Source: a virus. Taken from it: DNA of 64,000 nt. The DNA lies in the IMG/VR virus record IMGVR_UViG_3300042881_004673, positions 1-64,000 of that record. One strand, 5' to 3'. Every line of letters begins with the position of its first letter. Within the stretch, counting starts at the first letter, position 1. The position numbers and the translations under genes were made by a program. Shown here one piece after another: positions 40,603-41,520 of this stretch. The notes beneath the pieces are model-generated. The model did no database searches, was not told the origin of the DNA, and saw nothing but the letters and a program-made list of their open reading frames with translations.

Positions 40603-41520
40603 ATGAAAATAAAATCAATCAATGTTATCAATGGAAAAAACAAATGGAGTGAGTCCAAAGATAAGCTTATTCATATGATTTTAGATTTGGGTGAATTTGA
40701 AGAAAAACCATCAGATAAAATAGAAGGATTTTACGAAAGAATAAAAGAATATTTACCATCATTAAAAAGTCACAGATGTTCTGAAGGAAAACCAGGAGGG
40801 TTTCTTAAAAGAATTAAAGATGGAACATGGATGGGACACATTATAGAACATGTGGCATTGGAATTACAAACACTTGCCGGAATGAATACAGGATGGGGAA
40901 GAACAAGAGGAGTTAAAGGACAAAAAGGAGTGTATAATGTTGTGTTTAATTATGAAAACAAAGACAGTGGAAAACTAGCCGCAAGAGAAGCATTTAATGT
41001 TGTGAATGATATTATAAATGATATAGATCCAAAAATAGATAGAATAGTTAAAAAATTAAAACCAAAAAACTTAAAAGAATCCATAAGAAGAATATTAAGG
41101 GAAGAAACCAACATTAAACCCATTCTAAACAATTTACTTAATATGTTGTTTGATGGATTTGATGATATCTATTATGATTGGGCTCAATATAATTGTGGAA
41201 TGGGTGTTTGTTGTGACCCATATGCTGTTGGGTTTGTTCTTCCAAAAAATAATTATGATGATTATTTATTCAAATTGGTTGATGGTAATAACTATGACGA
41301 TAATGGTAAATACTTTAAAGAAGTAATGGGTGAGTTACCTGAAGTATGTTATGAAATGCCTGATGTTAAAAACCCAAACTTTAATTTTATAATATTTTAC
41401 GAAGTGTTTGCCGAAGAAATTGAGGATTACTTGGGACGTAAAGGTAATTGGAAAATTGAGTTACTAGCTTTAATAAATGAAAAGTTTGGTTGTAAGGCCA
41501 CTAATATAATGTTTATATGA
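40603..41520 (+). CDS. Cyanophycin synthetase N-domain homolog fused via an internal leader to an unknown Cys-containing domain
   Basis: LPSLKSHRCSEGKPGGFLKRIKDGTWMGHIIEHVALELQTLAGM..GWGRTR; then NLKESIRRILREE. Confidence 0.88.
   Translation: MKIKSINVINGKNKWSESKDKLIHMILDLGEFEEKPSDKIEGFYERIKEYLPSLKSHRCSEGKPGGFLKRIKDGTWMGHIIEHVALELQTLAGMNTGWGRTRGVKGQKGVYNVVFNYENKDSGKLAAREAFNVVNDIINDIDPKIDRIVKKLKPKNLKESIRRILREETNIKPILNNLLNMLFDGFDDIYYDWAQYNCGMGVCCDPYAVGFVLPKNNYDDYLFKLVDGNNYDDNGKYFKEVMGELPEVCYEMPDVKNPNFNFIIFYEVFAEEIEDYLGRKGNWKIELLALINEKFGCKATNIMFI

Follow-up and report, generated by a model that had tools for sequence, protein, structure and literature searches.

The 64,000-nucleotide stretch of viral DNA analyzed here (the window; positions 1 to 64,000 of IMG/VR record IMGVR_UViG_3300042881_004673) encodes a 305-residue protein that begins with the N-terminal (N) domain of the cyanophycin synthetase CphA1 and continues, behind an internal leader peptide, into an unrelated module (Table 1). 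The only known chemistry of this N domain is metal-dependent endo-cleavage of cyanophycin, (beta-Asp-Arg)n, a polymer studied mainly as a cyanobacterial nitrogen store. Judged from its sequence, the gene product is, with a probability of roughly 0.55, an active stand-alone Zn peptidase directed at cyanophycin, similar to an endo-cyanophycinase and using Cys-His-His metal ligands with a catalytic Glu. Comparisons among relatives also indicate that the N domain is an accessory, exchangeable cassette common to many T4-like phages, inserted in this phage in the leader of another gene. What is new is the setting of this known domain, which here stands alone, is borne by a phage, and is cassette-like.

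Profile and structure searches agreed on the identity of the domain. PF18921 (Cyanophycin_syn) matched residues 25 to 139 over profile positions 2 to 115 of 115 (E value of 1.7e-44; 150.9 bits versus a cutoff of 27), and a phmmer search against PDB found residues 1 to 141 of SuCphA1 (7lg5; E value of 4.8e-37). The cyanophycin synthetase profile TIGR02068 aligned only over positions 1 to 151 of 862, with 176 bits versus a cutoff of 850, so the ATP-grasp (G) and Mur-ligase-like (M) domains are missing; neither was found beside the N domain, and the whole record contains one PF18921 match. The 305-residue protein is not a CphA1 cyanophycin synthetase, which in the TIGR02068 type has N, G, and M domains and about 870 residues. 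In an AlphaFold2 model, residues 1 to 150 had a predicted local distance difference test (pLDDT) score of ~90. The top ten Foldseek matches to this model were all CphA1 chains (E values of 1e-15 to 3e-5), with 7txv (the E82Q mutant of SuCphA1), 7lgj, 7lg5, and 7wac among the best at ~1e-15, and as modeled the N domain shares the fold of solved CphA1 N domains. The module behind the leader (the C-module) had no match in Pfam, PHROG, NCBIfam, PDB folds (Foldseek), or the ESM Atlas. A preliminary description of this DNA, made from the letters alone, had recognized the CphA1 N domain in the first ~140 residues, the absence of the ATP-grasp and Mur-ligase domains, and an internal leader (NLKESIRRILREE) followed by something unrelated, and each of these points was borne out by the searches.

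The hydrolytic site within the CphA1 N domain came to light as late as 2022, when Sharon et al. defined the motif Cx19HxxEH, with C59, H79, and H83 as Zn ligands and E82 as the general base (PMC9262961). In CphA1 this site slowly endo-cleaves (beta-Asp-Arg)n, with primer making as its documented role, and the substitutions H57A, C59A, R70A, H79A, and E82Q lowered or eliminated primer-independent activity (PMC9262961). The phage translation contains the complete motif along with the supporting residues H57, R70, E87, and R100, which is the pattern of primer-independent (hydrolytic) CphA1 N domains; the residues that the preliminary description had picked out (H57, C59-x19-H79-x-x-E82-H83, R70, and R100) were read from the translation at the same numbers. 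H57-x-C59-x19-H79-x-x-E82-H83 was kept in 80 of 80 phage homologues covering the domain, the very comparison that had been proposed for the metal ligands, and in all 84 of the nearest cellular CphA1 N domains, whose named members were mostly Bacteroidota. The site columns were invariant across both sets.

Complete retention of the motif in phages, compared to its loss in ~17% of cellular CphA1, points to selection for catalysis. This bears on the proposal that the protein is a noncatalytic binder or decoy that sits on cyanophycin granules or on host CphA1 and blocks synthesis without cutting. The N domain of CphA1 does also anchor the growing polymer, and interference with CphA had been raised in the preliminary description, but the four catalytic and metal residues together with H57 and E87 persist in every one of the 80 phage copies, while cellular enzymes that lost the motif remain synthetases; a pure binder is improbable. 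The ratio of nonsynonymous to synonymous substitution rates (dN/dS) was 0.08 to 0.30 among five phage genes, a range indicating that the N domain is under purifying selection. A functionless passenger, meaning a fragment acquired accidentally from a host gene, would fit the fact that one close relative (IMG/VR record G159, described below) does without the domain. With more than 80 distinct copies in one clade, the dN/dS values given above, an invariant site, several subclades that carry the domain, and its exchange between divergent phages, the chance of this is negligible and the idea is effectively refuted by conservation. Explanations as a pseudogene or as host contamination were also ruled out, by clade-wide conservation and by the phage genes on both flanks.

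A column-by-column comparison of 81 phage with 84 cellular sequences separated the fixed parts of the domain from those that changed. Positions invariant or nearly so, and alike in both sets, were H57 to S60, G65 to F67, R70, G74 to H79, E82-H83, E87, Q89, G97, G99 to R102, and Y111. The polymer contacts S60, R70, G97, T101, and Y111 (Y110 in SuCphA1) were unchanged, and contact positions 90 and 96 are Thr, as in the nearest cellular CphA1. Phage-specific changes were P12K, Y14K, R18S, R19K, E30G, F98W, an inserted K105, and the last helix. Except for E30G and the helix, these lie around the groove, and together with a long stem branch, the loss of M-domain contacts, and the presence of cphA in only 36% of genomes of the candidate host family, they could describe a peptidase that kept its Cys-His-His/Glu machinery and moved to a new substrate, such as a different poly-amino acid or a host protein or peptide rich in Arg/Asp/Glu. 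We regard such a switch as unlikely, given that most of the SuCphA1 polymer contacts are conserved, that the closest enzymes from cells are three-domain cyanophycin synthetases of the ordinary kind, and that the contact at position 14, where phages have Lys and 85% of the nearest cellular CphA1 have Tyr, is given as one made by the backbone.

The documented role of the site within CphA1 raises the further idea that the phage protein makes primers, cutting traces of cyanophycin to speed host CphA1 and drive Arg and Asp into polymer. All 84 of the nearest cellular N domains already have the motif and would need no such help, and no gain for a lytic phage is obvious, which leaves this option with barely any credibility.

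A search of 5.8 billion proteins returned 334 relatives of 167 to 534 residues. These fell into three groups, having the N domain only, the C-module only, or both, and the break between modules was always at the leader. About 20 homologues of 305 to 306 residues were 87 to 93% identical to the window protein, and a freshwater subclade of 245-residue proteins includes GenBank entry CAB4175500.1; the phage copies come from freshwater subclades and from other subclades found in metagenomes of unrecorded habitat. At least 30 different modules directly follow the N domain plus leader among the homologues, and several of these partners occur in the window as separate leader-tagged genes or as polyprotein modules (for example, DUF2237 at 33566 to 34042 and a module at 38203 to 38613). 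The window's own DUF2237-like gene (33566 to 34042) begins with one of the shared leaders; PF09996 is on record for the homologues P0064 and P0151, and in these other phages the module is fused behind a CphA N domain.

The best full-length cellular CphA1 sequences were 52 to 63% identical to the phage domain and were ordinary three-domain synthetases, the named ones mostly from Bacteroidota (Winogradskyella, Polaribacter, Gillisia, Ulvibacter, Chitinophagaceae, and Sphingobacteriaceae). In quick maximum-likelihood trees (IQ-TREE; 102 and 48 rows), phage domains formed one clade, with Shimodaira-Hasegawa-like approximate likelihood ratio test values of 100 and 96, respectively. The clade lies inside a supported group containing all named Bacteroidota CphA1, with more distant representatives outside; the trees did not settle its exact sister, which is not specifically Crocinitomicaceae. 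The simplest reading of these trees is that the domain was taken once, long ago, from a Bacteroidota cphA and then spread among phages. Short "stand-alone" matches in a library clustered at 50% identity were mostly truncated CphA1 fragments that continue into the G domain, and gave no evidence for cellular stand-alone forms. Among 50,697 deposited phage genomes, tblastn with the protein and megablast with 20 kb recovered no relative, the sole match being a 50-nt chance match.

How the domain reached its present position could be read from G159, an IMG/VR record of 291,867 bp (99% complete) that was reached via the C-module. Compared to the window between 32 and 42 kb, G159 contains reshuffled blocks at 85 to 96% nucleotide identity, and PF18921 was not found anywhere in it. 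In G159, a module with an HExxH motif (equivalent to window positions 39965 to 40561) is followed directly by a stand-alone gene consisting of MNQQESIRKILREE plus the C-module. By blastn, the left border of similarity pairs positions 5366 to 5991 of the G159 stretch L109 with window positions 39969 to 40592 (93%), and the right border pairs 5969 to 6414 with 41075 to 41520 (96%). With these borders, window positions 40593 to 41074 are an insertion inside a leader, 23 nt of which flank it on either side. Alignment with G159 identifies the mini-ORF upstream of the main gene as the 5' part of the leader that the insertion cut. The former start codon of the C-module reads AAA in the window phage, and the C-module can therefore be produced here only as a fusion.

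The same borders rule out a remnant of a whole cphA in this phage, since they lie in leaders. The preliminary description had proposed that the phage "kept only the cutting domain"; the N domain is indeed alone, but it arrived as a mobile cassette in the leader of another gene, not as what was left of a whole cphA in this genome. Exchange of the cassette between phages is indicated by a comparison with a distant relative, G001, in which the N-domain protein is the best-conserved protein shared with the window phage (78% over 180 residues for the whole protein and 85% for the N domain, versus 28 to 60% for other shared proteins), and by a synonymous distance (dS) to another phage as low as 0.24. 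The arrangement is real and not an assembly artifact, because an independent 1,090-nt contig from a lake-water metagenome bridges positions 40024 to 41113 with one mismatch.

The leader interrupted by the cassette belongs to a larger family. From 33566 to 51929, ~20 consecutive plus-strand genes with unrelated bodies begin with one of two leaders, both ending in hydrophobic-x-Glu. Leader A, MNLQE(N/S)IRRIL(K/R)EE, heads ORFs at 33566, 39965, and 42665, and variants of it head ORFs at 34911, 35552, 36004, 36327, 36745, and 42147. Leader B, MKRIIRLTESDLTRIVKRVI.E, heads ten genes between 44825 and 51929. The internal leader of the main ORF has the same sequence as the N-terminal leader of a separate gene in G159, and it had pLDDT values of <50 in the AlphaFold2 model, as expected of a flexible linker. 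In 45 aligned proteins with different flanks, E159 and E167 were the sole columns kept in at least 90%, and both lie in (L)-x-E motifs.

In T4, a capsid targeting sequence (CTS) leader loads changeable proteins into the head and is removed by the gp21 protease (PMC9026906). A gp21-type protease (Peptidase_S77) was present in the relatives G001 and G003 to G005, which carry the N domain, and in G159 and G160; searches for the gp23 capsid protein were positive in G001, G003 to G005, and G159. Neither gp21 nor gp23 had a match in the window's own 80-kb record, a 28% fragment in which their absence is uninformative. In G001 the capsid protein has the sequence ...HLINE/AA where propeptide removal is expected (a slash marks the putative cut), and the scaffold protein is rich in (L/I)-x-E-S. 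The leader between the two modules agrees with the (L/I)-x-E rule by which T4-type head proteases cut, so the halves of the fusion are probably separated by such a protease.

A bolder extension of this analogy, which we offer as tentative and on balance doubtful, is that the N domain is virion cargo, loaded via its downstream leader, released through cleavage by the gp21-type protease, and then injected alongside the DNA. Cleavage at L-K-E/S or L-R-E/E would then free the domain in the prohead, and the host nitrogen store would be dissolved or blocked from the first minute of infection. The domain plus leader would act as a mobile cassette that can enter the leader of any other cargo gene, and the at least 30 fusion partners would thereby be accounted for. 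CTS cargo has an N-terminal leader; here that leader is a stub closed by a stop codon, and the full leader is present only internally. Six homologues do have an in-frame N-terminal leader ahead of the N domain.

The frequent pairing of domain and leader might also mean that the domain itself is a leader-processing or cargo-maturing peptidase whose target is the Arg/Glu-rich leader, either in cis or in other proteins that bear the tag. The leader, xL(K/Q)ESIRRILREE, follows the domain in 70 of 79 homologues with a tail, and the domain sits in an array of leader-tagged genes. G159, however, has leader-tagged arrays and no such domain, relatives possess a gp21-type protease whose rule already fits the leader, and conservation of the groove extends to enzymes whose ligand is beta-linked Asp-Arg, making a leader peptidase highly improbable.

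Judged from its relatives and its occurrence, the phage is an uncultured T4-like jumbo phage from lake water. The window covers 64 kb from the start of an 80.4-kb record (G000) that CheckV scored as 28% complete, implying a whole genome of ~290 kb. GC content is ~29%, and almost all window genes are on the plus strand. Fourteen lake-water metagenome runs contained at least 95% of sampled words of the stretch. Among capsid proteins of cultured phages, the nearest, from Microcystis phage Mel-JY01 and Flavobacterium phage immuto, were only 42 to 43% identical. The preliminary description's assignment of the gene to a phage was supported.

A clue to the host is an 818-residue secreted protein that starts at 62105 and runs past the end of the window to position 64561 of the full record. 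Besides SprB and PKD repeats, it has a type IX secretion system (T9SS) type-B sorting domain (TIGR04131); it is possibly an adhesin carried by the phage. Its best cellular relative, 57% identical over the full length, is encoded in a Crocinitomicaceae metagenome-assembled genome (MAG) from Lake Mendota, and other matches were nearly all to Bacteroidota. The host is most likely a member of the freshwater Flavobacteriales, such as Crocinitomicaceae, if this gene is a guide. Full-length cphA was present in all three tested Crocinitomicaceae MAGs that also hold relatives of the T9SS gene, and in 54 of 151 sampled Crocinitomicaceae genomes. The cyanophycinase gene cphB is present in candidate hosts and adjoins cphA in one of them (G006). 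A check of the predicted host for cphA, suggested in the preliminary description, thus came out positive for part of the family, for a host call that depends on one gene.

If the protein is a cyanophycin-directed peptidase, two routes by which it might serve the phage can be outlined. During infection, the domain would cut host cyanophycin into soluble oligomers, which host cyanophycinase (CphB) and dipeptidases would turn into Arg and Asp. Alternatively, after host translation has stopped, the domain could prevent cyanophycin from tying up Arg and Asp; one paper has suggested that inhibition of host protein synthesis, as in viral infection, may increase cyanophycin production (PMC7466765). 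By either route, nitrogen would be fed to phage synthesis. No cyanophycinase was found in the phage records searched (G000, G001, and G005), so full mobilization would depend on host enzymes.

Several observations weigh against an active cyanophycin-directed enzyme, beginning with this dependence on the host. Hydrolysis by CphA1 is slow, and S603 and E607 of the M domain, which also hold the polymer in CphA1 (PMC9262961), are absent from the phage protein. A long stem (1.42 changes per column) leads to the phage clade, which has the clade-specific changes near the groove listed above, and its substrate may therefore have shifted. A close relative, G159, manages without the N domain, which is thus dispensable. 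Assignment of the host depends on the single T9SS gene, and only about a third of the sampled genomes of the candidate host family have cphA. Finally, the window record contains no head genes, and both its T4-like nature and the protease rule come from relatives.

The protein resembles several described systems in part. It shares with the SuCphA1 N domain (PDB 7LG5/7TXV; PMC9262961) the Pfam family, the fold, the Cx19HxxEH site, H57, R70, E87, and R100, and a nearly identical polymer groove. Unlike SuCphA1, it has no G and M domains, and with them it lacks cyanophycin synthesis and the S603/E607 contacts; it also has Lys or other residues at the altered positions (K12, K14, S18, K19, W98, and the added K105), a new C-terminal helix ending in KKLKPK, and a phage-encoded fusion through a leader to unrelated modules. 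The cyanophycinases CphB and CphE (serine peptidase family S51, TIGR02069) share its proposed net role of releasing nitrogen by cyanophycin hydrolysis. Their fold and chemistry differ, being those of serine exopeptidases that release beta-Asp-Arg dipeptides, as opposed to a metal-dependent endo-cut that would yield oligomers.

The likeness to T4 internal proteins IPI to IPIII and Alt (PMC9026906) concerns organization. In both systems, a short amphipathic leader ending in (L/I)-x-E heads changeable, unrelated proteins, the leaders are points of gene shuffling, and a gp21-type protease is encoded (in relatives, for the phage described here). The phage leader differs in lying behind the N domain, its N-terminal counterpart being a dead stub, and in having a sequence unrelated to that of T4; its part in packaging and cutting is putative.

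A counterpart in the databases is CAB4175500.1 (UniRef100_A0A6J5PU94, hypothetical protein UFOVP972_221) from an uncultured Caudovirales phage, a 245-residue protein with a stand-alone N domain of the same clade, 75% identity over the domain, and an intact motif. It has a different tail and linker (RLVEG..MMEP..IMEP versus ESIRRILREE), and UniProt automatically annotates it as [quoted passage not shown] The preliminary description knew of no described phage gene of this type. In the literature this stood, as we found no paper on a phage-borne CphA N domain and none that studies CAB4175500.1; in the databases it did not, given this domain-annotated GenBank/UniProt entry.

Should the protein be active, the N domain would be a self-sufficient enzyme that can be tested directly as a 159-residue protein, and phages would be targeting the cyanophycin reserves of heterotrophic freshwater Bacteroidota, a link between infection and nitrogen storage on which we found no paper. 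A small, soluble endo-cyanophycinase could also serve to make defined cyanophycin oligomers. The locus also illustrates cleanly, in a natural setting, how a cassette inserts at a leader peptide common to several genes, here within the large leader-tagged gene arrays of T4-like jumbo phages.

Table 1. Features at and around the CphA N-domain gene (window coordinates; a slash marks a candidate cleavage point)
Feature	Coordinates	Strand	Description
Main ORF	40603..41520	+	Single ATG ORF, 305 aa; CphA1-type N domain, internal leader, and C-module
N domain, residues 1-155	40603..41067	+	Pfam match at residues 25-139 (nt 40675-41019)
Metal and substrate site	40771..40902	+	Direct reading, roles per PMC9262961; H57 (40771), C59 (40777), S60, R70 (40810), H79 (40837), E82 (40846), H83 (40849), E87, G97, R100 (40900), T101
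Internal leader NLKESIRRILREE, residues 156-168	41068..41106	+	Candidate protease sites L-K-E159/S and L-R-E167/E
C-module, residues 169-305 (137 aa)	41107..41517	+	Cys-containing (NCGMGVCCDP); stand-alone leader-tagged gene in G159
Inserted cassette (482 nt)	40593..41074	+	Absent from G159; stub end, stop, ATG, whole N domain, and first two internal-leader codons
Leader stub	40562..40597	+	Mini-ORF MNLQENIQSIR plus stop, in another frame; ends 5 nt before main ATG
Upstream neighbor	39965..40561	+	Leader A plus HExxH (HETAH) domain; possible second metallopeptidase cargo
Terminator-like hairpin and run of six U	41536..41568	+	Directly after stop codon; -12.6 kcal/mol, z -1.6

The genes around the main ORF show the same modular pattern, and neither PHROGs, Pfam, nor NCBIfam matched those neighboring it. 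In G001, leader B heads the homologue of the upstream HExxH neighbor, whose gene is placed just downstream of that for the gp21-type protease and upstream of those for scaffold and capsid; G159 has the HExxH module at the end of a 531-residue polyprotein. A 1,057-residue ORF at 36745 to 39918 consists of modules joined at (M/L/I)-x-E-S (MNES, LRES, IMES, and INES). G159 spreads the modules of this ORF over several genes in another order, which is evidence of shuffling at the level of modules.

The main ORF is the last in a same-strand gene run from 34911 to 41520, with the weak terminator-like hairpin behind it. The z score of this hairpin is not significant alone, and the hairpin was missing from the site list of a simple terminator scan. 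A scan for sigma-70 promoters gave fewer matches than in shuffled sequences and was uninformative. The motif TATTTAT precedes many leader-tagged genes by 11 to 38 nt (it was present for 10 of the 19 checked), chiefly where an intergenic gap lies ahead of the gene; the main ORF has none of its own. Metatranscriptome contigs from three lake runs cover 39965 to 40576 and 41068 to 41552 (the HExxH module, leaders, and C-module) at 90 to 99% similarity, from which leader-tagged genes of related phages occur in RNA libraries. These RNA contigs diverge right at the leaders and probably stem from related phages. None covers 40632 to 41058, and the contigs show neither expression nor silence of the N domain.

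Two features farther from the locus complete the picture of the record. A 441-residue UvrC-like nuclease with GIY-YIG and UvrC RNase H endonuclease domains is encoded on the minority strand at 26546 to 27874. Beyond the window, positions 75411 to 77036 of G000 (L017, 13512 to 15137) contain a cluster of five tRNA genes: Arg-TCT, Ile-GAT, Met-CAT, Glu-TTC, and Asp-GTC.

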